A stretch of DNA of 61,344 bases from Minisyncoccia bacterium. GTDB taxonomy: Bacteria; Patescibacteriota; Minisyncoccia; Moranbacterales; GCA-2747515. Below, piece after piece: positions 44,597 to 61,344 of the stretch. The translations under genes were made by a program, and so were the position numbers. Every line of letters starts with the position of its first letter. The first letter of the stretch is position 1. The DNA is taken from NCBI GenBank assembly GCA_041738235.1, contig JBGSQF010000013.1, positions 1-61,344 of the forward strand, given 5' to 3'. The notes beneath the pieces are model-generated. The model was not told the DNA's origin. It searched no databases and was given only the letters and a program-made list of their open reading frames with translations.

Positions 44597-45139
44597 ATGG
44601 GTGTATTTCTTCGGATAGGCATCATTACGATAGCGATATGTTTGGATATGGTTCTCTCCGGATATTTTGGGGGGTCGCTCATATCACCTAATGTTACTCT
44701 CATGCTTGTTGTGGCGTGGTCACTCTTGCTGGGATTTACGGAATCGATCGGTTGGGTGATGCTTGCAGGTGTTCTTGCTGATATGGTGCTTTTTCGTCCC
44801 TTGGGTTTTTCTATTTTCATGTTCGTAGTGGCTGCATATGCGTCAAGTTTTCTGTCTAAGCGATTTTTTATAAGGCATCCGCTCTGGATATTGGTGCCAT
44901 TTTTTGGTGTTGTAATATTCTCTGTTTGTATGGAAATTCTTGCAGTGGTATTATTTTGGGGAGTGAAGGAGGGGGGGTCACTCATTATGACTTGGATAAT
45001 GCATGGAAGTGTCGTTATGCAAGGACTTCTTATCCTTGTGAACGCCGCGTTATTCTTTTTGAGTTATCGTGTTTTGGATGGCGTTGAAACATTCTTGTCT
45101 TACTATAAACGTAGGGTTCAACCAAAGAAATATGTTTAG
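44597..45139 (+). CDS. mreD: rod shape-determining protein MreD (by position and topology)
   Basis: About 5 TM helices and small size. Sits between mreC and PBP2. ATG 44597 follows the mreC stop. Confidence 0.6.
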   Translation: MGVFLRIGIITIAICLDMVLSGYFGGSLISPNVTLMLVVAWSLLLGFTESIGWVMLAGVLADMVLFRPLGFSIFMFVVAAYASSFLSKRFFIRHPLWILVPFFGVVIFSVCMEILAVVLFWGVKEGGSLIMTWIMHGSVVMQGLLILVNAALFFLSYRVLDGVETFLSYYKRRVQPKKYV

Positions 45140-47009
45140 AAAATATCGTGTTCACATTCAGGATGGGTCAGAGATCGATGATGGCCTTCTCACACTTGGA
45201 GAAAAAGAAGCTTCACGACTCCGTCCTGCTCTGAATAGGAGTAATACAAAGATCGCCTGGGGGATCGTTTTTGTGCTGTTTTTAGTGTTTGTTGGGAAGC
45301 TCTACGATCTTAACGTTGTTCATGGAAAGTATTATGTAGAAAAGGCGATGAACAATAAAACAAGAGAGTACGCCCTTCCGGCACCTCGTGGAAAGATATA
45401 TGACCGATCGGGAAAAGTTTTGGCTCAAAATGTGCCCTCGACCGATATTGTTGCCATAGCATCGTACCTTCCGTCGGAAAGTGGTGCGCTTGGTAGTTTG
45501 GTTCAAGAGACATCCTCGCTATTTTCCATTTCAGAGGAGGATATTCGCGGATCATTTGATGATATGAAGAAGAGTCGTCAGCCACAAGTGGTCCTCAAGA
45601 AAAATGCTTCACGAGAAGAAGTTCTGCGCTTTCTAGAAAGACAGGATCATTTTCCGGGCATTTTTGTGCAGCAGTCGGTGAAAAGACAGTACGAGGAAAG
45701 TGCTATATTCTCGCATATTATTGGGTATGAGGGAAGAATCAGTGTTGATGAATTGGAACAACACCCAACATACACACTTAACGATTCGATCGGACGACAG
45801 GGTCTGGAGCGATCCTACGAGGATGGTCTTCGTGGAACACCTGGTGCAAGACGATTAGAGGTAGACGCTTTCGGTCGGGTTCAGAAAGAGATCTCCTCGC
45901 TTGAACCTATCCCGGGGGATGACCTTGTATTGAGCATTGACGGAGGGTTACAGAAAAAATTATTTGATGCAATGTCTCAAGAGTTAGAGAAATCAGATCT
46001 TCATAGTGGTGCCGCGGTAGCGCTTGACCCGAGAAATGGGGAGGTTTTGGCTTTAGTAAGTTTTCCATCTTTTGATAACAACGTATTTGCGAACGGAGTC
46101 GACCGAGAAGGTTATTCGCTTATTACGGGTGATCCTCATAGACCAATGTTCAATCGTGCCATTTCTGGGGTCTATCCACCCGGATCGACCATAAAACCAA
46201 TTGTGGCGGTGGCGGCATTGGACGAGAACATTATCTCGGAAAATAAACAGATCGAAAGTCGTGGAGGAATCAGTGTTGGAAGCTTCGCATTTGGTGATTG
46301 GAAAGCCCATGGATTCACGGATATTCGTCATGCCATAGCTGTATCGAGCGATGTATTTTTTTATACGATTGGGGGGGGATATGGTGATGTTGCCGGTCTC
46401 GGAATGGATCTTATGAAAAAATATGATGATCTTTTTGGATTGGGGGAAAAAACAGGTATAGATCTTCCCTCGGAGGCATCGGGAGTTGTGCCAGATGAGG
46501 CATGGAAAAAAGAGACGATAGGCGAACAATGGTATGTGGGGGACAGTTATCATGCCGCTATTGGGCAGGGATTTGTGTTGGCAACTCCGCTTCAAATGGC
46601 TTCGGCGATGGCAGTTATTGCTAATGGTGGAACTTTATATCAACCGAAGATCGTGTCACAAATGCGGGATGCGTCAGGGAGCGTGGAGTCTTTTCCTTCC
46701 AAGGTCCGTCGGGAGAATTTTGTTTCTGCCCATGCACTTGGGGTGGTTCGAGAGGGAATGCGCTTGACGGTGACGGAGGGGACAGCACAGCAGTTGAAAG
46801 ATCTGCCAGTGGAAGTTGCGGGGAAGACAGGAACGGCACAGTTCGGTACGGAGGAAAAAACTCACGGTTGGTTTGAATCATTTGCTCCCTATCAGGATGC
46901 GAAGATCGTTTTGGTGGTTATGATAGAGGGTCAAGCCAAAGAAGATACGTATAATGCCGTCCCTATTACGCATGAGGTTCTTGATTGGTATTTCTCACAG
47001 GATAAGTAG
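45132..47009 (+). CDS. mrdA: penicillin-binding protein 2 (class B transpeptidase)
   Basis: STIKP (SxxK), SSD, KTGTA. N-terminal TM anchor plus a dimerisation domain. ATG 45132 overlaps the end of mreD. Confidence 0.9.
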   Translation: MFRKYRVHIQDGSEIDDGLLTLGEKEASRLRPALNRSNTKIAWGIVFVLFLVFVGKLYDLNVVHGKYYVEKAMNNKTREYALPAPRGKIYDRSGKVLAQNVPSTDIVAIASYLPSESGALGSLVQETSSLFSISEEDIRGSFDDMKKSRQPQVVLKKNASREEVLRFLERQDHFPGIFVQQSVKRQYEESAIFSHIIGYEGRISVDELEQHPTYTLNDSIGRQGLERSYEDGLRGTPGARRLEVDAFGRVQKEISSLEPIPGDDLVLSIDGGLQKKLFDAMSQELEKSDLHSGAAVALDPRNGEVLALVSFPSFDNNVFANGVDREGYSLITGDPHRPMFNRAISGVYPPGSTIKPIVAVAALDENIISENKQIESRGGISVGSFAFGDWKAHGFTDIRHAIAVSSDVFFYTIGGGYGDVAGLGMDLMKKYDDLFGLGEKTGIDLPSEASGVVPDEAWKKETIGEQWYVGDSYHAAIGQGFVLATPLQMASAMAVIANGGTLYQPKIVSQMRDASGSVESFPSKVRRENFVSAHALGVVREGMRLTVTEGTAQQLKDLPVEVAGKTGTAQFGTEEKTHGWFESFAPYQDAKIVLVVMIEGQAKEDTYNAVPITHEVLDWYFSQDK

Positions 47010-47106
47010 GGGGTGATTGACAGATCGTTCATTTAGGAGTAGTATTCTCTTTATTGTGAGAAAAAATGGGGTTATATGTGAATTTATTGCTCTAAAATCA
47101 GAAAAT

Positions 47107-47562
47107 ATGGTAACATGGCTTACAGAGGACGGGCTTAAAAAGATCCAGGAGGAACTAGAGTCCCGAAGAACGACAGTGCGACAAGAGATCGCGCATGCTA
47201 TAAAGGAGGCAAAGGAACAGGGGGATCTGAGTGAGAACGCTGAATATTCTGCTGCGCGGCAGCGACAAGGAGAAAACGAATCACGCATTACCGAATTGGA
47301 GATCCTTGTGAAGAACGCTCGTGTGGCGGAAAAAAAAGGAGGATCGAACAAAGTGCAATTTGGATCTTGTGTTTCTATACGAACAGGAAATAACGTCATG
47401 AAATTTGAGATCGTTGGGACGAATGAGGTAGACCCTGCCAAGGGGAAGATATCCGATCAATCTCCTATGGGGCGTGCGTTTATGGGGAAGGAGAAAGGGG
47501 ATAACGTGATCGTAGAGACACCTTCAGGGAAAACGGATTTTGAGATCCTTGAGATCGAATAA
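47107..47562 (+). CDS. greA: transcription elongation factor GreA
   Basis: LTEDGLKKIQEELE...QGDLSENAEYSAARQRQ coiled coil plus a C-terminal FKBP-like domain. ATG 47107 lies inside the ORF that opens at 47017. Confidence 0.9.
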   Translation: MVTWLTEDGLKKIQEELESRRTTVRQEIAHAIKEAKEQGDLSENAEYSAARQRQGENESRITELEILVKNARVAEKKGGSNKVQFGSCVSIRTGNNVMKFEIVGTNEVDPAKGKISDQSPMGRAFMGKEKGDNVIVETPSGKTDFEILEIE

Positions 47563-47669
47563 AGTAACTGTTATGGATGGTTTTATACAAAATAGTTGGT
47601 GGCGCAATGATATTCTCATGAGAGGATGTTTTGTTGCGTCTTGAGTTGGTTGTGTATTCTACGACTTTA

Positions 47670-47705
47670 CAAAACACCCTCTCAGCGAGAGGGTGTTTTG
47701 CTTTT
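47670..47705 (+). terminator. rho-independent terminator after greA
   Basis: acaccctctc (47674-47683) pairs with gagagggtgt (47687-47696), followed by tttgctttt. Confidence 0.7.
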
Positions 47706-47733
47706 ATCGTCACCGATGATGTGGAGGAAGGCA

Positions 47734-47826
47734 ATGAAGAAGTGTGAATGGATGGACTCTTGGCCACGCAAGAAACAACCAAGAGAACCGGAGCCTCAGC
47801 CTCAACCGAGGCCAAAGGATCCATAA
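47734..47826 (+). CDS. possible 30-aa basic, Pro-rich peptide (MKKCEWMDSWPRKKQPREPEPQPQPRPKDP)
   Basis: GGAGGAAGG lies 3 nt upstream of ATG 47734. Isolated between two terminators. No homology recognised. Confidence 0.25.
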   Translation: MKKCEWMDSWPRKKQPREPEPQPQPRPKDP

Positions 47827-47854
47827 GGGCGTCTATTGCGGAGGTGCTCATTTC

Positions 47855-47897
47855 AAAAAATAGGCGAGGGGAATCTTCCCCCTCGCCATCTTTTTTA
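47855..47897. terminator. bidirectional terminator
   Basis: ggcgagggg (47863-47871) pairs with cccctcgcc (47879-47887), flanked by A6 on one side and T6 on the other. Confidence 0.75.
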
Positions 47898-47918
47898 GAA
47901 TATCCTATGGTTTTGTGA

Positions 47919-48299
47919 CTATTCCTCTTCTGCTTCGATCTTTTTTGCCCCAGTCTTTTTAAAGGTGACGGAGAACTGTGGTTCGTAGAGGGTATTGTAT
48001 TCGTCGGAGATCTCGATCGATTCTCCTTTCATGAGTGTGGTCATAGCGATATCGGAGATCATTTGTTTGAGGTCGGTGATCTCGTCTCGTAGCTCTTCGA
48101 ATCGATGGTAGCGTGTTCCCATTTGTTCCTGTGCGTGTGTTTCGATGAGTTTTTTTTGTTCACGCTTTTCTTGCATCTCTTCTATGAGTTTTTGGTATTC
48201 TGAATCGTGAGCGAGGAAATCTTTATATTCTTTTCGGATCGAGCGTTGTTCGGTATTGAGTTCTTGCATTCTGGAAAACAGCGATTGGAGATCTTGCAT
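47919..48299 (-). CDS. coiled-coil hypothetical protein (126 aa)
   Basis: Charged heptad-rich sequence, clean ATG, and a terminator downstream on the minus strand. No family recognised. Confidence 0.6.
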   Translation of the reverse strand: MQDLQSLFSRMQELNTEQRSIRKEYKDFLAHDSEYQKLIEEMQEKREQKKLIETHAQEQMGTRYHRFEELRDEITDLKQMISDIAMTTLMKGESIEISDEYNTLYEPQFSVTFKKTGAKKIEAEEE

Positions 48300-48407
48300 A
48301 TTTTTATATTAAGAAATAAGTAAGAGGAAGTATATCATGATTTCTTGTTTGTGGGAAAGTTATAAAAAGGGTATTATGAGAGAGAATTGATATGTTTATC
48401 TTTTAAT

Positions 48408-49535
48408 ATGCGAATTGGTATTGATGCACGGTTTTATGGGACTCTTGGGAAAGGGTTAGGCCGGTACACACAACAATTGATCACTCATTTGGAAAAGATG
48501 GATACAGAGAATACGTATTTCATTTTTTTGCGTTCTGAAAATTTTGATGTGTATAACCCCCAGAATCCAAATTTTCACAAGGTTCTCGCAGATGTTCCTT
48601 GGTATTCATGGAAAGAGCAACTGCTTTTTCCTCGAATCTTATTGAAATATCGCTGTGATGTAGTACATTTTACTCATTTTAATGTCCCACTTTTTTATAC
48701 TAGGTCATTTGTACTTACCGTGCATGATCTTATTCTTTTTCATTTTCCGACGATCCGATCTACAACACGATCCGTTCTTGGTTATTGGATGAAGTATCTT
48801 ATGTATCGGATCATCTTGTGGAGCGCCTTGAGTCGTGCAAGACGTATCATTACGGTGTCTCAATATACTCGGGATGACATATCAAGTAACTTCCATATAG
48901 AAAAAGAAAAGATGATCGTGACGTATCAAGCAGCAACGGATATCCGAGAGAAAGGGAATGTAGAAAATACGAAATATGATCCTCGCCCATTCGTCTCAGA
49001 ATATGGTATACTAAGTAAGTATTTTCTTTATGTGGGGAATGCATACCCGCATAAGAACCTGGAACGACTTCTTGAGGCGTTTCAGAGGATCAACGATACA
49101 CAAATAATACTGGTTTTAGTTGGGAAAAAAGATTATTTCTATGAGCGACTCCAGCGTTATGTAGAGAGACGATCGATCCAGCGTGTTATTTTTACGGGAG
49201 AAGTTTCTGATGGGGATCTTGAATGTTTATACCGAGGGGCGATGGCGTATGTGTTTCCTTCTCTTTACGAGGGATTTGGTTTACCTCCATTTGAGGCGAT
49301 GGCCTTGGGTACACCAGTGGTGGCTGCTTCGAGAGCCGCTCTTCCGGAAGTTTTGGGTTCTGCGGCATTGTATTTTGATCCAGAGGATATTGAAGATATG
49401 ACCAAAAAGCTTGTTTTGCTTTCGGGTGATGAGAAGCTTCGTGCAGATCTGGTGGAGAAGGGATACCGTCGTGTGAAAGAATTTTCATGGACAAGACTTG
49501 CTCAGGATACCCAGGAAGTCTACCAGTCTGTATAG
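48408..49535 (+). CDS. GT-B glycosyltransferase (family 4-like)
   Basis: [18 protein letters not shown] N-terminus. C-terminal [25 protein letters not shown] (EX7E). Confidence 0.85.
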   Translation: [375 protein letters not shown]

Positions 49536-49594
49536 AAGTACTGCTGTTGAATCTGGATAAAAGCTATTTTTTCAAAGAATAAAAACTTGTTTTA

Positions 49595-52534
49595 ATGAGA
49601 TCAAAGAAAAACACAACGCCAATAAATGAATTTGATGGGGTCCAGGACGATCTTTCTTCGCAGGAGAAGTTGGTTTTTTTTGGTGTTTCTGAAGAAGATG
49701 AGGAAGATGAATCTCGTTATTTTGGCTCTCCTTATGGTGAGGACACAGATCAGATAGTTCCTCCCGCTGAAAGACGAGTGGACGCTCAGATCAGATCAGG
49801 GGAAACTAACACTGTCGAGAAACAAGACCGTTCGGAATTTGTAGAAGAGGTTTCTTTCTCGAGAGCATCTCGACCGTTTGTTCGTCAAGAACGAGAAAGG
49901 CCAGAAGTTCCTTCTTGGATGTTGAAAAAGGATCGATCGCATCTAAATTTTTCGGACATTCGGCCGCCACGTCCGATGGCGGATCAGAGGGAGTCAATAA
50001 AAACATTCCGTGAGGAGATTGTTCCGGTCAATGTGAACAGAGTTCCCACTCCCCAAGTAGAGGAAATAAAAGAACAGGTGTCGACACAAGAACAAGAGTT
50101 GCCATATCTCGAGAACAAAAAAGAAGTCCCACTATCGTTTCAAGAGGTTATCCAGCCAGCTATAGCAGACAAGGAAAATGTTACTTTTCCAAAGCAATGG
50201 GATCTGGAAAAGGATATAACGCCTGTTGTTGAGAACGAGAGCACTTTGTCGTCGTACGTGCAAGAGCTCGTACCTTCTGAGGAGGTTCTTCCACAGTCCG
50301 TTGAACAGTATGTTCCAGTTGAGGAGGATCGGGCGACTGAGAGAGTTGACGTGGTTGAAGTTCCTGAGGCACTCACAGAAGAGGCGGGGGTCCCTGAACC
50401 AAGGGTCTTTGCGGAAAGTCAGGAGCTGTTGGAATTACAGCACAGAGATGATTCTATTGGGAGTTTACAATGGGACAGCAGCCAAGATCAACTCACTTTC
50501 CCCAAAAATGCTCCTCAGGGGAATAGGGGCGTTTCCTCCCTATTTGGAAAGGCACTCTCTCTGAAATGGTTTCACTTCCCAAAATTTGCATATACGTATG
50601 CAATGTTAGGAGGTATGCTGTTATTGGGATTTGGTACACTGTCTTATGTGATGCGCGGTATTGATTTGCAGGGGTCGGTATTGGGCGTGAGCGACCAGGG
50701 TATGAGTGGGACCCTTTCGGCAATTGATTCTTTGAAAAAACAGGATTTTTCTGCATCGAGTCAGCAATTCGAACAGGCATCAGAGTTGTTTGGATCCGCT
50801 TCTCATGAGATATCTTCATGGGCTGGACTTCTTTCCGATATTCCAGCACCTATACCTATTCTTTCTAAGATATCATCTGGAAAAAATGCCTTGCAAGCCG
50901 GTGAGCATCTTGCGCTTGCCGGAAAATATATGACAGAGATCGTTGAGACCGCATCGACCGTGAGAGATTCTTCAGTAGAGAAACTTTCTCTTCTGGATTT
51001 ATTTAAAAGAAGCGTTGACCTCTCAAATCAGGCACGTGATGAACTTATGGCGGCCCAAGAGGCATTGCAGAAGGTGCGTCTTTCAGATATCCCGGAAGAT
51101 AAAAGAGATCGCTTTGCACAACTCAAACAAACACTTCCAGTACTTCTCGCAGGATTGGATGTTGTTCACGCCAACGCCCCCGCATTTACTGATGTTTTGG
51201 GAGGAAATGGTCCGAGGAAGTACCTCTTTCTTTTTCAGAACAATCAAGAGGCTCGTGCTACAGGGGGATTTATTGGAAGTTATGGGATATTGGATATGAA
51301 AGATGGTGAAATACGGAAATTCTTTATTAATGGGATATTTGATCCTGACGGACAGTTGAAGGTGGATATCGTCCCTCCGCAACCTATTCGCAAGGTGAGT
51401 GCAGCATGGAGCCTACATGATAGTAATTGGTTTGCGGACTTCCCAACTTCAGCGGAAAAAGCAATATTCTTTTACGAAAAAACAGGTGGTCCAACAGTAG
51501 ATGGTGTTATCACCATCACGCCAGTGGTTTTGCAACGGTTGCTAGAGGCCACTGGTCCGGTATATCTTCCGGAATACGACGTAACTATAAACGCAGATAA
51601 TGTTATAGAAAAACTTCAATATAAGGTGGAGGTAGATTACGACAAAGAGGAGAATAAACCAAAGAAGATTCTGGGTGACCTTGCTCCAATCCTGCTGGAC
51701 AGAATAATGAACATGAAAGATCCGGAGTTGGTGGCGCATATTGTTGAGGCATTACATTCTTCTCTCAGTGAGAAACATATTTTGTTGTACTCTCGAAATG
51801 AGGCATTACAAAAGATGTATAAGGATCTTGGCTGGTCGGGCGAGCTTAAAGAAACTTCTAACGATTTTTTGAGCGTTGTAAATAGTAACGTCAATGGATT
51901 TAAAACGGACGGCGTTATTGAGCAGACAGTTCGACACCATGCGGATATACAAGAGGATGGTTCTGTTGTTGATACAGTGACCGTGACGCGAAAACATAAT
52001 GGTGGGGATACACCGTATGAGTGGTGGAATGCAGTAAATGCTGATTATATGCGGTTGTATGTCCCAAAAGGATCGCAACTTATTTCGGTCAAGGGACAGA
52101 CACGGGAAGTCGTAAAAGATCCGCTTGACTACAATGCTCTGGGATTTCAGCACGATGAGCTAGTGGATCAGATCGAATCAACGCTTCATATCGATCAGAA
52201 CAGTGGTACACAAATATTCGAAGAGTCTGGAAAAACGGTTTTTGGTAATTGGGTATATGTGAGTCCGAAGGAGTCGGTTACTGTCGAATATGTGTATAGG
52301 CTCCCATTTCAGGTGATGCAGCAGAAAGATCAAAAGGAGATCCCATATTCTCTGCTTACGCAGAAGCAGTCGGGTTCTTTGCCGAGTAATTTCTTTGCCA
52401 CAATATCGTATCCAAAATACTGGAAGATCAATTGGCTATCTCCCTCAAGTGTGGAAACGAGTTCGGGGTCTACATCGTACGAGGGGTTACTGGCAACGGA
52501 TCTCTTTCAGGGATATGTGTTCGACACGGAGTAA
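49595..52534 (+). CDS. large DUF4012-like membrane-anchored extracytoplasmic protein
   Basis: About 330 aa of acidic low-complexity N-terminus, one TM helix (YAMLGGMLLLGFGTLSYVM), and a core with FQNNQEARATGGFIGSYG. Confidence 0.75.
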   Translation: MRSKKNTTPINEFDGVQDDLSSQEKLVFFGVSEEDEEDESRYFGSPYGEDTDQIVPPAERRVDAQIRSGETNTVEKQDRSEFVEEVSFSRASRPFVRQERERPEVPSWMLKKDRSHLNFSDIRPPRPMADQRESIKTFREEIVPVNVNRVPTPQVEEIKEQVSTQEQELPYLENKKEVPLSFQEVIQPAIADKENVTFPKQWDLEKDITPVVENESTLSSYVQELVPSEEVLPQSVEQYVPVEEDRATERVDVVEVPEALTEEAGVPEPRVFAESQELLELQHRDDSIGSLQWDSSQDQLTFPKNAPQGNRGVSSLFGKALSLKWFHFPKFAYTYAMLGGMLLLGFGTLSYVMRGIDLQGSVLGVSDQGMSGTLSAIDSLKKQDFSASSQQFEQASELFGSASHEISSWAGLLSDIPAPIPILSKISSGKNALQAGEHLALAGKYMTEIVETASTVRDSSVEKLSLLDLFKRSVDLSNQARDELMAAQEALQKVRLSDIPEDKRDRFAQLKQTLPVLLAGLDVVHANAPAFTDVLGGNGPRKYLFLFQNNQEARATGGFIGSYGILDMKDGEIRKFFINGIFDPDGQLKVDIVPPQPIRKVSAAWSLHDSNWFADFPTSAEKAIFFYEKTGGPTVDGVITITPVVLQRLLEATGPVYLPEYDVTINADNVIEKLQYKVEVDYDKEENKPKKILGDLAPILLDRIMNMKDPELVAHIVEALHSSLSEKHILLYSRNEALQKMYKDLGWSGELKETSNDFLSVVNSNVNGFKTDGVIEQTVRHHADIQEDGSVVDTVTVTRKHNGGDTPYEWWNAVNADYMRLYVPKGSQLISVKGQTREVVKDPLDYNALGFQHDELVDQIESTLHIDQNSGTQIFEESGKTVFGNWVYVSPKESVTVEYVYRLPFQVMQQKDQKEIPYSLLTQKQSGSLPSNFFATISYPKYWKINWLSPSSVETSSGSTSYEGLLATDLFQGYVFDTE

Positions 52535-52691
52535 TGATTGATGCTTGCGGAGTATTTTGTTTACAGCATGTGGTGGGGAATTTGATTGACGGAAGAACCT
52601 TTTTCTTGTAGTATTTTAATGCGATTCTGAATGAGCTGACCGTGATCTTTTTCGAAGGAATTTTTATTTTTTTCAACTACTTCTTACTATA

Positions 52692-54317
52692 ATGTACAAA
52701 GCGCTTCTTGCCGTTTTTTCTTTTGTTCGGAGAAAAATACAATCGAGAAATAGCCCCATGGAATCAGTAGCGGGAGCGGCATTCGTTCTGGCTATTTTTG
52801 GCATAGCGAGCCGTTTGTTGGGTTTGGTGCGCGATAGGATCCTTGCATCACAATTTGGTGCGGGGGACGTTTTGGATGTGTATTATGCAGCTTTCCGAGT
52901 GCCAGACCTTTTGTATAGTTTACTGGTTCTAGGCGCGCTCAGCGCTGCGTTCATACCCGTATTTACTGAGGTGATGGAGCGTTCCGACGAGAAACGTGCA
53001 TGGGAGCTGGCATCCTCAGTGCTTACTCTTTTAGTAGTGGCGATGCTTATTCTTTCCGTATTTGGTATCGTGTTCCTACCATGGATCGTCCCGCTTATTG
53101 CGCCTGGGTTTGACGCCGGTAAGCAACAAATGGTCGTGGAGTTTGCGCGTATTATGTTTTTGAGTCCTTTATTCCTTGGAGCGAGTGCGGTATTGGGTGG
53201 AGTGCTTGTGTCGCGAAGATGCTTTTGGGCATATTCGGTTGCGCCACTTTTTTACAATGTGGGTATTATTCTTGGAGCAACGGTGGGAGTGCAATTTTGG
53301 GGGATCAAGGGTTTGGCGTGGGGCGTTGCCATCGGATCGGTGATGCATTTTATGGCACAGATGGTCTCAGCAAGAAACATCGGTTTTACTTTTTTTTGGC
53401 AAAAGTTTTCATTCTGGAAGGATGAATCGGTCCGAAGGATCGTTGGTCTTATGATTCCCCGTACGCTTACAGTTGCTGCCAATCAGATCAATTTGTTTGT
53501 AATAACTATCTTTGCTTCAACACTGACTGCCGGAAGTTTAGCGATCTTTAACTTCGCCAATAATTTACAGAGCATTCCATTGGCGCTTTTTGGAATATCA
53601 TTTGCTACGGCTGTATTTCCGCGACTCAGTACATTGTCGGCCAAGAAGGATCACGATGGATTTTCTCACACCTTCTATCGGACGCTCCGGCGAATCCTCT
53701 TTTTTGTGATCCCGATCACAGTGCTTATGCTTGTTCTTCGTGCACAGATCGTTCGAGTGGTACTAGGATCAGGACATTTCGACTGGGAAGACACCGTTCT
53801 TACTTTTGGAGTGTTGGGGATCCTCGCAGTAAGTTTGTTTGCGCAAAGCTTGTTGCCTCTTTTGGCAAGATCCTTTTACTCTCTGCAAAACACTAAAACG
53901 CCATTCTTCATATCTCTGTTCTCGGAGGGGGTGAATGTATTTCTGGCTCTTGCGCTTATTAGAGAGTACGGTGTGTATGGTCTTGCTATCGCATTCACGG
54001 TTGCCGCGATCGTGCAGATGTCTCTCATGATGTTCTTTTTAAGAAAATGGGTGAGTTATTCGAGTCGAGAAAATATCGTACAATTTCTCTTGAGGCTCTC
54101 GGCAGCTTCATTGGTAGCGGGTCTGGTGGCACAAGGCATGAAGAGCTTTTGGGGGACGGTGACCAACTTAAGTACCTTTTGGGAGGTCTTTGCTCAGTTG
54201 GTATTTTCTGGTGGTGCCGGTGTAGGTATCTTTATTTTAATGGCAATGTACCTTCATATCGATGAATTCGAGGATTTTAAAAAGAATATCATGAAAAAGG
54301 TTTTTGGTGTTGTTTAA
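52692..54317 (+). CDS. murJ: lipid II flippase MurJ (MviN)
   Basis: SRLLGLVRDRILASQFGAGDVLDVYYAAFRVPDLLY and about 14 TM helices. Confidence 0.9.
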   Translation: MYKALLAVFSFVRRKIQSRNSPMESVAGAAFVLAIFGIASRLLGLVRDRILASQFGAGDVLDVYYAAFRVPDLLYSLLVLGALSAAFIPVFTEVMERSDEKRAWELASSVLTLLVVAMLILSVFGIVFLPWIVPLIAPGFDAGKQQMVVEFARIMFLSPLFLGASAVLGGVLVSRRCFWAYSVAPLFYNVGIILGATVGVQFWGIKGLAWGVAIGSVMHFMAQMVSARNIGFTFFWQKFSFWKDESVRRIVGLMIPRTLTVAANQINLFVITIFASTLTAGSLAIFNFANNLQSIPLALFGISFATAVFPRLSTLSAKKDHDGFSHTFYRTLRRILFFVIPITVLMLVLRAQIVRVVLGSGHFDWEDTVLTFGVLGILAVSLFAQSLLPLLARSFYSLQNTKTPFFISLFSEGVNVFLALALIREYGVYGLAIAFTVAAIVQMSLMMFFLRKWVSYSSRENIVQFLLRLSAASLVAGLVAQGMKSFWGTVTNLSTFWEVFAQLVFSGGAGVGIFILMAMYLHIDEFEDFKKNIMKKVFGVV

Positions 54318-54346
54318 TGGGAAGGACTAAAAAATAAAATATCTGT

Positions 54347-54694
54347 ATGAACATCTTCTTTCGTTGGATCTTGATGGCGCTAGCGTTCTATCTAATAGCC
54401 TATTTTGTTCCGGGCATAGCGATCGCTAGTGGAGTGACGGCACTCATACTGGCTTTCTTCTGGGGCGTGGTCAATGTTTTGCTCAAGCCTATCCTTATTC
54501 TTTTGACGCTTCCTATTACACTGCTCACCCTAGGACTCTTTACGTTGGTGATAAATGGATTTATGTTTTGGGTTCTTTCGCTTTTTGTGAAAGGATTCTA
54601 TGTGCAGGATTTCTGGTCGGCCATGGTAGGAGCTTTGCTGCTCTCGGTTGCTTCTTGGGCGATAGAAAAGATGGGAGAGAAGCAGGGGGAATAG
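54347..54694 (+). CDS. DUF360 / phage holin 4 family small membrane protein
   Basis: 115 aa with 4 TM helices. VNVLLKPILILLTLPITLLTLGLFTLVINGFMFWVLS. Confidence 0.7.
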   Translation: MNIFFRWILMALAFYLIAYFVPGIAIASGVTALILAFFWGVVNVLLKPILILLTLPITLLTLGLFTLVINGFMFWVLSLFVKGFYVQDFWSAMVGALLLSVASWAIEKMGEKQGE

Positions 54695-55519: not shown

Positions 55520-55546
55520 TTAGCACTCTTGACTATACTCTGCTAA
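55520..55546 (+). promoter_or_regulatory. degenerate CIRCE-like element overlapping a candidate groES promoter
   Basis: TTAGCACTC-N9-CTCTGCTAA: the left arm is perfect and the right arm matches 6/9. TTGACT (55529-55534), 17 nt spacer, TATACT (55552-55557). Confidence 0.45.
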
Positions 55547-55598: not shown

Positions 55599-55883
55599 AT
55601 GGCAAAAATAGGAATTCGTCCCATTGGGGACTATGTGCTTGTTGAGCAAAAAAAGGTCGAAAAGAAAACTGAAACGGGGCTTTACCTTCCTGACAGCGCT
55701 TCGCAGGAACGGGCCAAACAGGGAAAGGTTGTTGCGATTGGAGAAGGGAAGAAGGTCTTGGTAAAGAAGGGTGAGACGATCATTTACAAAGGGTATTACG
55801 GTGAGGATGATATTATCAAGGAAGGAAAGAAGGAGTATCTTTTGGTGAAAGCGGAAGATGTGATCGCTGTAGTGGAGGAATAA
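55599..55883 (+). CDS. groES: co-chaperonin GroES
   Basis: IRPIGDYVLVEQ...ETGLYLPDSA...GKVVAIGEG, 94 aa. Confidence 0.95.
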   Translation: MAKIGIRPIGDYVLVEQKKVEKKTETGLYLPDSASQERAKQGKVVAIGEGKKVLVKKGETIIYKGYYGEDDIIKEGKKEYLLVKAEDVIAVVEE

Positions 55884-56158: not shown

Positions 56159-56190
56159 AAGGACGTTCTCTCTTGGACTGGAAAAGAATG

Positions 56191-56263
56191 TGCGCTCGGC
56201 AGGAATCGGACCTGCGACCTTCTGGACCGCAACCAGACGCTCTATCCACTGAGCTACGAGCGC
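56191..56263 (-). tRNA. tRNA-Arg (anticodon GCG), CCA not encoded
   Basis: Hand-folded cloverleaf: GCGCTCG/CGAGCGC acceptor, GCTC..GAGC D arm, TCTGG-TTGCGGT-CCAGA anticodon arm, GCAGG-TCCGATT-CCTGC T arm. 73 nt. Confidence 0.85.
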
Positions 56264-59372: not shown

Positions 59373-59399
59373 GTTAGCACTCGGACTTGACGAGTGCTA
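59373..59399 (+). promoter_or_regulatory. CIRCE operator (HrcA binding site), perfect consensus
   Basis: TTAGCACTC-GGACTTGAC-GAGTGCTAA, 76 nt upstream of the hrcA ATG. Confidence 0.9.
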
Positions 59400-59474
59400 A
59401 AAGTGGAATTATAATGAGTGTGTAATGATCGAGGTGCGGGATATAATAACTCAATTTTCAATCTTGACCACGTT

Positions 59475-60245
59475 ATGAATGAGCGACAGAAACACATTCT
59501 TGCGGCAGTAGTGAAGGAATACACGGAAACAGCTTTGCCGGTAGGGTCTGGGGTTTTGGTGCAGAAATATCTTCCGGACGTCAGTAGTGCCACGATCCGA
59601 AATGACATGGCTGAGCTGGAGGATGAAGGGTATCTTTATCAACCCCATATCAGCTCAGGACGTATTCCGACGGACGAGGGGTATCGATACTTTGTGGAAG
59701 AGGTGATGGAGGATCGGGAGCTTTCTCTGGATGAGCAACAATCCCTTCAGAAGGAACTTTTGCAGCTTCGGGCTAAGAATGTACGACTTGCACGAACGAC
59801 GGCGAAACTCCTTTCTGCACTATCGGGCGGTGTTGGACTTTCTGGTGTGGTGTCGAAGAACAAAGAAGAGTTTTATGAGTTTGGGCTTCCTCATCTGCTT
59901 GAGCAGGCGACAGAACGAGGGGATATTGATGAAGTATGTCGATTGGCGGAGGTGTTGGATCTTATTGATGAAAAATTGGATGTATTGCTTGATAGGGTGA
60001 AGGATGGGGAAACGCGGATATTTATCGGAAAGGAGAATCCTATTAGCGAGATATCGGGGTATTCAATGGTGGTGTCGCCGTACACATCCAAGGGGGGTGA
60101 TCGCGGAGTGATAGCCCTTATTGGCCCAAAGCGTATGGAGTATGCGAAGAACAAATCATTGATCGATTACGTAAAGCGGTTACTGAGTTCTTCCGGGGTT
60201 GTCATAGTGATACTTTCTAGCGGGGCGGTAGTACTAATTTCGTAA
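59475..60245 (+). CDS. hrcA: heat-inducible transcription repressor HrcA (short form)
   Basis: N-terminal wHTH QKHILAAVVKEYTETALPVGSGVLVQKY...SATIRNDMAELEDEGYL. ATG 59475 lies inside the ORF that opens at 59418. Confidence 0.88.
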   Translation: MNERQKHILAAVVKEYTETALPVGSGVLVQKYLPDVSSATIRNDMAELEDEGYLYQPHISSGRIPTDEGYRYFVEEVMEDRELSLDEQQSLQKELLQLRAKNVRLARTTAKLLSALSGGVGLSGVVSKNKEEFYEFGLPHLLEQATERGDIDEVCRLAEVLDLIDEKLDVLLDRVKDGETRIFIGKENPISEISGYSMVVSPYTSKGGDRGVIALIGPKRMEYAKNKSLIDYVKRLLSSSGVVIVILSSGAVVLIS

Positions 60246-60255
60246 TATTAGTGAC

Positions 60256-61206
60256 ATGGAAAAAAAGAAAATGAGCCATGAGCATCGTCGAAACTTTGCC
60301 GAGGTACAGATATTTTCTGGGGGCATCATTGTGAACAAAGATGATAAGATATTTCTCGCCAAGGGACAGAAATTTGGCAATAAATATATTTTTCCGGGGG
60401 GGAAGGTTGAAGCGAATGAAAGCATTGAAGAGGCAGCCATTCGGGAAATAAGAGAAGAAACAGGGATGCAGGTAGAGATCGAGTCCCAGCTGCACTTCAG
60501 TGAGTTTCGTGATCGTCCGGAGGCGGCATATAAAAATAAACGGTTTGTTCTTTGCGATCTGGTTCTGAGGTATTCTGGTGATGAAAGTGAAATAGAGCTG
60601 AATGATGAATATGACGGTGATCACGGATGGTTTTCGGTCGGTGAGGCCCTTGCGCTCGACCTTGGAGGTAATGTTCGTGAAACAGTCCTTGCTTATCGAG
60701 AGTATGTGGAACGAAAGAGTTCGATGGATAACTGGAAGCGTGCGGTAGCGGAGTTTGAGAATTACAAGAAAAGCAAGATGAATTTGGAGCGAGATATGGC
60801 AGGGCGGGCGGTGGAGGATTTTGCCTATCGATTACTTCCTGTGGTAGATAATTTCCACGCTTCGACCGATCACATCCCGGATGACCAGAAGGAAAGCGGT
60901 TGGGTACAGGGGATCATGTATATTCAAAAACAGTTGGAGCAAGTTCTGCAAGAAATGGGCATTGAGGAGATCGTGACGAAAGAGGGGGACACATTCGATC
61001 CACGTGTGCATGAAGCAGTAGCTGAAACAAACAAAGACCAGAAAGTGGCAGGTGATGAGGAGGAGAAAGATGAGGATGAGGATGACGAGCAACAGGAAAT
61101 AGCGGATAAGGAAAAGAATAATGCGGAGAAGATAAAGCAGGTTCTGGTGAAGGGATACAAACGAGGAGAACGGGTGGTTCGAGCGGCGAGAGTGATAGTT
61201 GTGTAG
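60256..61206 (+). CDS. grpE: Nudix hydrolase - GrpE fusion protein
   Basis: Perfect Nudix box GKVEANESIEEAAIREIREETGM (aa 49-71). GrpE core AEFENYKKS...LLPVVDNF...GDTFDPRVHEAV...VKGYKRGERVVRAARVIV. One continuous ORF. Confidence 0.85.
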   Translation: MEKKKMSHEHRRNFAEVQIFSGGIIVNKDDKIFLAKGQKFGNKYIFPGGKVEANESIEEAAIREIREETGMQVEIESQLHFSEFRDRPEAAYKNKRFVLCDLVLRYSGDESEIELNDEYDGDHGWFSVGEALALDLGGNVRETVLAYREYVERKSSMDNWKRAVAEFENYKKSKMNLERDMAGRAVEDFAYRLLPVVDNFHASTDHIPDDQKESGWVQGIMYIQKQLEQVLQEMGIEEIVTKEGDTFDPRVHEAVAETNKDQKVAGDEEEKDEDEDDEQQEIADKEKNNAEKIKQVLVKGYKRGERVVRAARVIVV

Positions 61207-61268: not shown

Positions 61269-61344
61269 ATGCGCAGAGGACTTATGCAATGGCATCCTAT
61301 GTTGGATGTCGACCAATTCTTCGACAACGACTTCCTGAGCGGGG
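61269..61344 (+). CDS. possible small heat-shock protein (Hsp20-like) N-terminus, truncated by window end
   Basis: AAAGGGGG lies 8 nt upstream of ATG 61269. MRRGLMQWHPMLDVDQFFDNDF resembles sHSP N-termini. Only 25 codons are visible. Confidence 0.35.
   Translation, partial: MRRGLMQWHPMLDVDQFFDNDFLSG

Follow-up and report, generated by a model that had tools for sequence, protein, structure and literature searches.

The DNA examined here is contig JBGSQF010000013.1 of a Minisyncoccia bacterium (assembly GCA_041738235.1), an uncultured, ultra-small member of Patescibacteria, taken over its whole length of 61,344 nucleotides (hereafter the window; GC content 42%). Close to its 3′ end lies a gene in which a Nudix hydrolase domain is fused to the nucleotide exchange factor GrpE. 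The nudix-grpE open reading frame (ORF) runs from 60256 to 61206 on the forward strand (+) and encodes 316 amino acids (aa) in a single frame with zero internal stops. An alternative ATG at 60271 would give a protein of 311 aa; homologues that open with MEKKKK favour the ATG at 60256. Domain calls were judged by Pfam gathering thresholds and NCBIfam curated cut-offs. The Pfam NUDIX profile (PF00293) matches aa 23–136 with 61.4 bits (cut-off 21.1; E 1e-16) and the GrpE profile (PF01025) matches aa 152–315 (104.7 bits against 25.8, E 5e-30), with positions 26–163 of the 165 in the GrpE profile covered. An earlier note, made from the sequence by eye, had placed a Nudix and a GrpE domain in this one ORF, and the profile searches bear this out, with both halves significant and the frame uninterrupted. 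Searching the sequences of the PDB with the C-terminal half recovered GrpE from T. thermophilus (3a6m, E 4e-10), G. kaustophilus (4ani), E. coli (1dkg) and M. tuberculosis (8gb3), as well as human GrpEL1 and 9blt, and the N-terminal half recovered many small Nudix enzymes. No second GrpE or Nudix gene was found elsewhere in the window.

The fusion gene lies in a heat-shock operon. It is preceded by hrcA (59475–60245, +), which encodes the heat-inducible repressor; the probable start is the ATG at 59475 within a mechanical ORF of 59418–60245. HrcA scores 216.4 bits with TIGR00331 (cut-off 197.2) and is 79–84% identical to HrcA of three related loci (L001–L003). Directly 5′ of hrcA is a predicted HrcA binding site, the CIRCE operator TTAGCACTC-N9-GAGTGCTAA (59374–59400, +), with 0 mismatches; shuffling the sequence 100 times gave an expectation of 0 perfect sites. 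The operator overlaps the −35 hexamer of a sigma-70-type promoter (TTGACG-17-TATAAT; 59387–59415, +) that fits the consensus at 11/12 positions, and no terminator-like site was found between this promoter and the end of the window. After the fusion gene an hsp20 gene for a small heat-shock protein begins (61269–61344, +) and is truncated by the window end. Its N-terminus, MRRGLMQWHPMLDVDQFFDNDFLSG, is shared with the Pfam HSP20 genes found 3′ of grpE in L001–L003.

The same gene order is seen in relatives. Seven related loci (L002, L003, L004/L005 and L086–L088) carry hrcA, nudix-grpE and dnaK in this succession, with hsp20 before dnaK in six, and the fusion gene occupies the grpE slot at every locus examined. 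Across seven related loci dnaK comes 0.4–2 kb after grpE, and in the source genome it would lie beyond the window end. An upstream glutamate dehydrogenase gene is common to L003 and the window. Judging from hrcA, the operator, the promoter and the syntenic order, the fusion protein is the GrpE of this operon, with predicted expression under HrcA/CIRCE heat-shock control.

The Nudix fold spans aa 18–136 (60307–60663, +), as delimited by Pfam NUDIX, by AlphaFold2 with a predicted local distance difference test (pLDDT) above 90, and by Foldseek. The Nudix box GKVEANESIEEAAIREIREETGM (aa 49–71; 60400–60468, +), read from the sequence and called perfect in the earlier note, matches GX5EX7REUXEEXGU exactly. 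Across 65 fused homologues the mean pairwise identity of the Nudix domain is 35%. Residues G49, R63, E64, E67 and E68 are kept in 63–65 of these 65 proteins, and the wider set that includes G48 and E55 is retained in 61–65 of them; E118 is found in 63 and W125 in all 65. The box is fully intact in 111 of 119 fused proteins (93%). The ratio of non-synonymous to synonymous substitution rates (dN/dS), calculated by the Nei–Gojobori method across three closely related loci (L086–L088), is 0.08–0.17 for the Nudix half and 0.03–0.08 for the GrpE core, compared with 0.02–0.07 for hrcA and 0.02–0.03 for dnaK. The Nudix half is under purifying selection, with a constraint somewhat weaker than that on the GrpE core. 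Because the catalytic residues are conserved and dN/dS is this low, the domain is probably catalytically competent as a pyrophosphohydrolase.

All of the top 50 Foldseek matches of the Nudix domain are Nudix enzymes with the α/β/α sandwich. The nearest is the Ap6A hydrolase Ndx1 of T. thermophilus (1vc8; TM score 0.84, root mean squared deviation 2.2 Å) and the next the Ap4A hydrolase of Aquifex (3i7u), after which a CTPase, NudI, MutT1 and RppH follow at almost equal scores. The modelled similarity to Ndx1 and to the Aquifex enzyme may be taken only as a lead to the substrate. The MutT equivalog models stay under their cut-offs (TIGR00586, 47.3 against 97.9 bits; PRK10776, 45.7 against 148 bits). 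Nudix subfamilies can be marked by a Tyr (ApnA hydrolases) or a Pro (ADP-ribose hydrolases) some 15–18 residues past the box; neither is conserved in the consensus of the 65 sequences, the window protein having R, P and E at +16 to +18, and an SQPWPFPxS-type marker after the box is absent from the same consensus. With the models under cut-off and the markers unconserved, the assignment of a substrate by these means was dropped.

The GrpE domain (aa 152–315; 60709–61200, +) consists of a stalk, a helix-bundle part and a C-terminal β-domain. An AlphaFold2 monomer model built with the 65 homologues (mean pLDDT 86) contains the Nudix sandwich (aa 18–132), two helices (aa 140–205 and 215–233) and the β-domain (aa 236–315). 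In the GrpE half pLDDT is ~90 outside the acidic insert described below, and the stalk, bundle and β-sheet architecture is present. The first of the two helices (60673–60870, +; AlphaFold2 and DSSP) joins the C-terminal helix of the Nudix domain, the GrpE stalk and the first bundle helix, and the Nudix helix is thereby predicted to run uninterrupted into the stalk. An ATG at 60724 (M157), preceded by GAAAGAG, lies exactly at the boundary of the two domains, and a GrpE-only product is possible in principle. Internal initiation there was rejected, as the Met is unconserved (Leu or Ile in homologues) and the junction is a continuous predicted helix.

In the PDB alignment residue 157 of the fusion corresponds to residue 59 of E. 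coli GrpE and residue 159 to residue 61 of M. tuberculosis GrpE. The cryo-EM structure of the M. tuberculosis DnaK–GrpE complex shows Arg64–Arg86 of the stalk touching both subdomain IA of the nucleotide-binding domain (NBD-IA) and the substrate-binding domain (SBD) of DnaK, and the disordered N-tail of this GrpE is required for substrate release (PMC10803776). In E. coli GrpE an IIM motif in the tail binds the SBD groove (PMC12915176). The WKR..FENYKK stretch of the fusion aligns with the DnaK-contacting part of the M. tuberculosis stalk, and within it W160, K161, R162, F167, E168, N169, K171 and K172 are each shared by 90% or more of the fusion family. G219 is invariant in the family and is aligned to E. 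coli G122, the grpE280 site. The earlier note had the long N-terminal helix of GrpE largely replaced by the Nudix domain. By alignment to the E. coli and M. tuberculosis proteins this holds for the disordered tail and roughly the first 20–25 helix residues, whose place the Nudix domain appears to take, but not for the conserved, DnaK-contacting two-thirds of the stalk helix, which the fusion appears to retain. By homology with the M. tuberculosis complex the Nudix domains would sit at the end of the stalk beside the DnaK SBD, opposite the nucleotide cleft that is opened by the β-domain, a placement that would disfavour direct capture of released ADP.

A second feature singled out in the earlier note is an acidic insertion in the β-domain. 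The D/E/K-rich segment is real and forms a β-hairpin loop (aa 260–291; 61033–61128, +) in which 16 of 32 residues are D or E, some 25 residues more than the loop of E. coli GrpE. The latter comprises the 7 residues S162–G168, in a numbering anchored on the PDB alignment. The alignments to T. thermophilus and G. kaustophilus GrpE break at exactly this position. Unfused relatives (P0015, P0021, P0028 and P0031) have an equally expanded loop, so the expansion is no mark of the fusion. The HEAV-to-KGY stretch that includes the loop varies across the clade from 17 to 69 residues, with a net charge from negative to positive. AlphaFold2 gives pLDDT below 50 over aa 259–287, dN/dS of the loop is almost neutral (0.19–0.63 in L086–L088), and a GATGAG micro-repeat (2.8 copies, 61069–61085) within it suggests replication slippage. 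The insert was therefore rejected as a conserved functional element, since its length, charge and sequence are free and it is predicted to be disordered and is near-neutral; it is regarded as a tolerated, probably slippage-prone surface loop and not as a functional part of the fusion.

Many GrpE proteins of Moranbacteria, fused and unfused, have Cys-rich sequences in the same hairpin, such as CCHDEKCQDGKC, ECKGCKTKDY and HCDNCGDCGCEKK; the carriers include P0034–P0036, P0040, P0043, P0047–P0054, P0076, P0078, P0081 and P0083, among others. Cys/Gly-rich N-termini are found in P0067, P0079 and P0107 (CCGGGCCGG). These Cys-rich loops and N-termini may be metal-binding or redox-sensing elements.

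The fusion is not confined to this contig. A homologue search of a collection of 5.8 billion proteins gave 456 matches, and 73 among the best 120 are proteins of 286–331 aa with both Pfam domains. They originate from NCBI, JGI, ENA and Logan assemblies and from many independent samples. A survey of related genomes had been suggested in the earlier note; across all searches it amounts to 119 distinct clusters or representatives with Nudix and GrpE together, which belong, where named, to Patescibacteria (Patescibacteria, Moranbacteria, Parcubacteria, Pacebacteria) and are annotated ‘nucleotide exchange factor GrpE’. At least 4 full-length fusions are among the 80 GTDB loci listed in a genome scan that was no census. 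The Nudix–GrpE fusion is genuine and widespread in Patescibacteria. No description of this architecture was found in literature searches. One locus stands apart from the others. L008 (contig DATMYW010000001.1, 7.9 kb) has a full fusion with a Patescibacteria-type junction, ALDGWKRCLADFENYKK, in a metagenome-assembled genome labelled ‘Candidatus Fimivivens sp.’, which we take to be non-Patescibacteria; its GC content of 54% is much above that of the other loci. It could be a binning contaminant or a transfer beyond Patescibacteria.

Within this group the N-terminal module turns over between close relatives. The locus L001 (protein P0015), with HrcA 84% and GrpE core 86% identical to those of the window, has no Nudix domain but a K/E-rich tail, and no Nudix gene nearby. 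In L002 (P0013) HrcA and the GrpE core are 81% and 82% identical to the window and the Nudix domain just 31%; in L003 (P0004) the corresponding values are 79%, 74% and 58%. Conversely, P0006 has a Nudix domain 56% identical on a GrpE core only 49% identical to that of the window. Pairwise identities of the Nudix and GrpE parts are weakly correlated (Spearman 0.22), and four Nudix clusters occur within one GrpE cluster (at least 70% identity). A single ancient fusion with strictly vertical descent was rejected on these two grounds.

An exhaustive HMMER search with the Nudix domain over 1.84 billion representatives gave only three matches with E below 1e-30, all fused. Past these three, standalone Nudix proteins, tandem Nudix–Nudix proteins and other fusions are mixed at ~30–38% identity. 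A word-indexed protein database queried with the Nudix part alone gave just 59 candidates and 9 weak standalone matches, and missed even the fused homologues. The junction itself is near-constant: in different Nudix types the WKR motif comes 35–40 residues after the invariant Trp. Two histories would account for this: very fast divergence of the Nudix half together with recombination, or the repeated installation of different Nudix paralogues at one site. The best explanation is that the N-terminal module is accessory and exchangeable and not integral to nucleotide exchange. Many of the nearest non-GrpE relatives of the window Nudix are tandem Nudix–Nudix proteins of ~270–310 aa, and two proteins among the matches of this search, P0131 (449 aa) and P0187 (450 aa), have two tandem Nudix domains before GrpE.

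A different enzyme-like domain is found at the same position in sister lineages. In the GTDB Moranbacteria locus L012 (3612–4142) GrpE has another N-terminal domain, of ~160 aa, and this family comprises at least 11 clusters (P0279–P0289) that are 47–61% identical at full coverage and share an invariant GSLGL...G...DxD motif. No Pfam family scores above threshold for this domain; matches to nucleotidyltransferases (NTases) are sub-threshold. In an AlphaFold2 model (pLDDT 79) its non-GrpE neighbours are the Pol-β-fold nucleotidyltransferases LnuA, ANT(2'')-Ia and MenT1. In L089 the NTase–GrpE gene (899–1864) lies between hrcA and dnaK. From sequence and predicted fold, then, the GrpE N-terminus appears repeatedly to bear nucleotide-handling enzymes in this part of Patescibacteria. 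A protein of 490 aa, P0314, has an N-terminal NTase-like domain, 59% identical to P0279 over 162 aa, joined to an HhH-GPD base-excision-repair domain, which suggests that the NTase module is mobile between partners. A standalone NUDIX gene of 190 aa (L089, 5858–6430) lies three genes 3′ of dnaK.

The remainder of the window holds a few further features. An ORF of 94 aa at 55599–55883 (+), MAKIGIRPIGDYVLVEQ..., is GroES-like and a candidate by sequence, with a degenerate CIRCE of 3 mismatches 5′ of it (55520–55546). What follows it is not groEL but a tRNA gene on the reverse strand, and this genome apparently keeps groES apart from groEL. ARAGORN and Rfam detected no RNA gene in the window other than this tRNA-Arg (anticodon GCG; 56190–56263, −). 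A cell-envelope gene cluster at 45069–54694 (+) encodes, all on the forward strand, a PBP2-type transpeptidase (45069–47009), GreA (47017–47562), a GT4 glycosyltransferase (48387–49535), a DUF4012 protein of 979 aa (49595–52534), MurJ (52692–54317) and a Phage_holin_4_2 family membrane protein (54347–54694).

What the analysis shows directly is the identity of the two domains, how conserved and selected they are, the operon with its regulatory elements, the predicted architecture and the turnover of the module; dimerisation, nucleotide exchange, Nudix catalysis with its substrate, and where the Nudix domain lies relative to DnaK are inferred. The protein is likely to combine two functions in heat shock: it would work as a GrpE, with an exchangeable, competent Nudix domain held at the tip of the stalk in place of the tail. 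The C-terminal 160 residues would form a normal GrpE core that dimerises and frees ADP from DnaK, with a Nudix pyrophosphohydrolase standing in for the disordered N-tail and the distal stalk. Since the Nudix C-terminal helix is modelled as continuous with the stalk, each dimer would carry a rigidly fixed pair of Nudix domains at the tip of its stalk, beside the DnaK SBD. Under stress the Nudix domain would hydrolyse a nucleoside-diphosphate-X compound while the GrpE core exchanges nucleotide; as its substrate we would guess at either a dinucleoside polyphosphate, for instance Ap4A, or a (d)NTP, damaged or ordinary.

Several points weigh against this reading. The NCBIfam GrpE equivalog models (PRK141xx) score far under cut-off, at best 70.2 against 176 bits; these models are lineage-tuned and full-length and the fusion protein is divergent, fused and insert-bearing, and the low scores suggest that its GrpE half is a divergent GrpE. 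No more than 61 kb of the genome is covered by the window; another, canonical grpE may lie outside it, as dnaK would. A few homologues have degenerate Nudix boxes (for example P0022, with RLVVGD), which suggests that Nudix activity is dispensable in some lineages, and no Nudix subfamily model (MutT, YtkD, PRK08999) scores above cut-off. The dimer geometry and the placement of the Nudix domain on the SBD side are extrapolated from the M. tuberculosis complex and a monomer model, and the function of the family members is a prediction from sequences and models.

How far the two halves of such a bifunctional protein would work together can be seen in more than one way. In one, a housecleaning Nudix enzyme, for example MutT-like, was fused to grpE to share its heat-shock regulation in streamlined genomes, and the halves are independent. 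The closest sequence matches are indeed MutT/8-oxo-dGTPase-like, tandem Nudix–Nudix and standalone Nudix proteins are equally close relatives, turnover and loss of the module leave the GrpE core unaltered, and dN/dS of the Nudix half is 2–3 times more relaxed than that of the core. However, operon adjacency would suffice for co-regulation, and the Nudix domain is rigidly grafted via a continuous predicted helix, with the Trp-to-WKR spacing near-constant in different Nudix types. The recurrence of different types at one site suggests selection for a physical link. Shared expression as the whole explanation is accordingly tentative, credible enough to be kept in view but on balance doubtful.

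The earlier note had gone further and proposed that the fusion couples the clearance of alarmones or ADP derivatives to the DnaK cycle. In that case the Nudix domain would clear or sense a stress nucleotide that acts on DnaK (Ap4A/NpnN or an ADP derivative), linking alarmone turnover to the Hsp70 cycle. DnaK, GroEL and ClpB can be photo-cross-linked to Ap4A, and mutation of apaH causes heat sensitivity (PMC10148737). This cross-linking to DnaK, the predicted heat-shock regulation through CIRCE, the conserved active site and the Ap6A and Ap4A hydrolases as best structural neighbours speak for coupling, as do the persistence of the fusion at one and the same junction over deep divergence (to as little as 60% identity in HrcA), the rigid graft on the stalk with its recurrence at one site, and the second nucleotide-handling fold, the Pol-β NTase, at the same position in sister GrpEs. 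Against it, the Nudix domain would be placed beside the SBD, a long way from the nucleotide cleft; CTPase, NudI, MutT1 and RppH have structural scores almost equal to those of the ApnA hydrolases; and neither a subfamily model nor a conserved specificity motif points to a substrate. Were the module intimately coupled to DnaK and co-evolved with it, it would hardly be swapped and lost among close relatives as it is. Some elements of the proposal are supported; the coupling itself is plausible but rather unlikely.

A broader form of this idea would make the GrpE N-terminus of Moranbacteria-like Patescibacteria a docking site that brings exchangeable nucleotide-processing enzymes to the SBD or linker of DnaK, tying Hsp70 to a nucleotide signal or modification. 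This might be the local destruction of DnaK-inhibiting Ap4A/NpnN, or the writing or erasing of a nucleotide-derived mark on DnaK or its clients. To our knowledge no bacterial chaperone has been described as regulated through such docking of nucleotide enzymes on GrpE, and we offer the idea as speculation with rather a small chance of being right. A pseudo-enzyme, in which the Nudix fold stabilizes or caps the coiled-coil stalk and so shifts thermosensing or replaces the substrate-release tail without catalysis, is improbable. In its favour, the parts replaced are precisely the N-tail and distal helix to which roles in substrate release and thermosensing are ascribed (PMC12915176, PMC10803776), and some members have degenerate boxes; it sits badly with the 93% of boxes that are intact, with metal-ligand glutamates and E118 that are near-invariant despite the low mean identity of the domain, and with a dN/dS well under 1. 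An artefact that joins neighbouring nudix and grpE genes through a sequencing frameshift or a lost stop has nothing in its favour but the in-frame ATG of M157 at the domain boundary, and we regard it as ruled out by the continuous architecture repeated in 119 proteins from independent assemblies, by the Leu or Ile that homologues carry in place of M157, by the confident, unbroken helix that AlphaFold2 gives across the junction, and by the unfused relative L001, which is without any nearby Nudix gene.

GrpE is seen purely as a thermosensor and exchange factor, free of enzyme activity, and Patescibacteria have very few stress-response genes. If the protein is the bifunctional GrpE favoured here, a conserved lineage would have a new type of Hsp70 co-chaperone, an enzyme-bearing GrpE in which the substrate-release tail gives way to a hydrolase or, among sister lineages, to a nucleotidyltransferase. 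The fusion would then give a testable handle on the old and unsettled link between dinucleoside-polyphosphate ‘alarmones’ and the heat-shock chaperones. Its annotation as ‘nucleotide exchange factor GrpE’ conceals a second, predicted activity in many Patescibacteria genomes. Even with independent halves it would still be a clean case of rapid module turnover at one fusion junction. Both domain families are already known, and the proteins are public and annotated just as GrpE; literature searches found no papers on the fusion or its conservation, on the turnover of the module or on the sister family with an NTase. The host organisms are uncultured and the function of the fusion is a prediction.

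The fusion can be compared with four related kinds of protein. Canonical GrpE (1DKG, 3A6M, 4ANI, 8GB3) has the same Pfam GrpE domain, stalk motif and bundle Gly, the C-terminal β-domain motifs FDPxxHEA, KGY and RxARV that are also present in the fusion, and the same place after hrcA in an operon under CIRCE, with dnaK following in syntenic relatives of the fusion. The fusion differs in having a 135-aa Nudix domain instead of the N-tail, which in E. coli contains the SBD-binding IIM, and of ~20–25 stalk residues, in a hairpin loop ~25 acidic residues longer, and in NCBIfam equivalog scores far under the cut-offs. The unfused Patescibacteria GrpE (for example P0015, L001) has a core 86% identical (72% over the whole GrpE half), the same operon and a similarly expanded hydrophilic loop; its N-terminus, however, is a K/E-rich tail of 40–55 aa where the fusion has Nudix. 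Single-domain Nudix hydrolases (Ndx1, 1VC8; Aquifex, 3I7U; MutT, 1MUT; B. thuringiensis MutT/Nudix, 3ID9) resemble the fused Nudix in their complete box, their sandwich and their similar size, with target-normalised TM scores of 0.78–0.84 and 24–27% identity, the nearest standalone Nudix sequences being just about 33–40% identical. In contrast to these enzymes, the C-terminal helix of the fused Nudix is predicted to be prolonged into a coiled-coil stalk. Finally, the NTase–GrpE of Moranbacteria shares with Nudix–GrpE a nucleotide-handling fold of ~150 aa, the same graft point on the stalk and the same operon, but its N-terminal domain is predicted to be a Pol-β-type nucleotidyltransferase.

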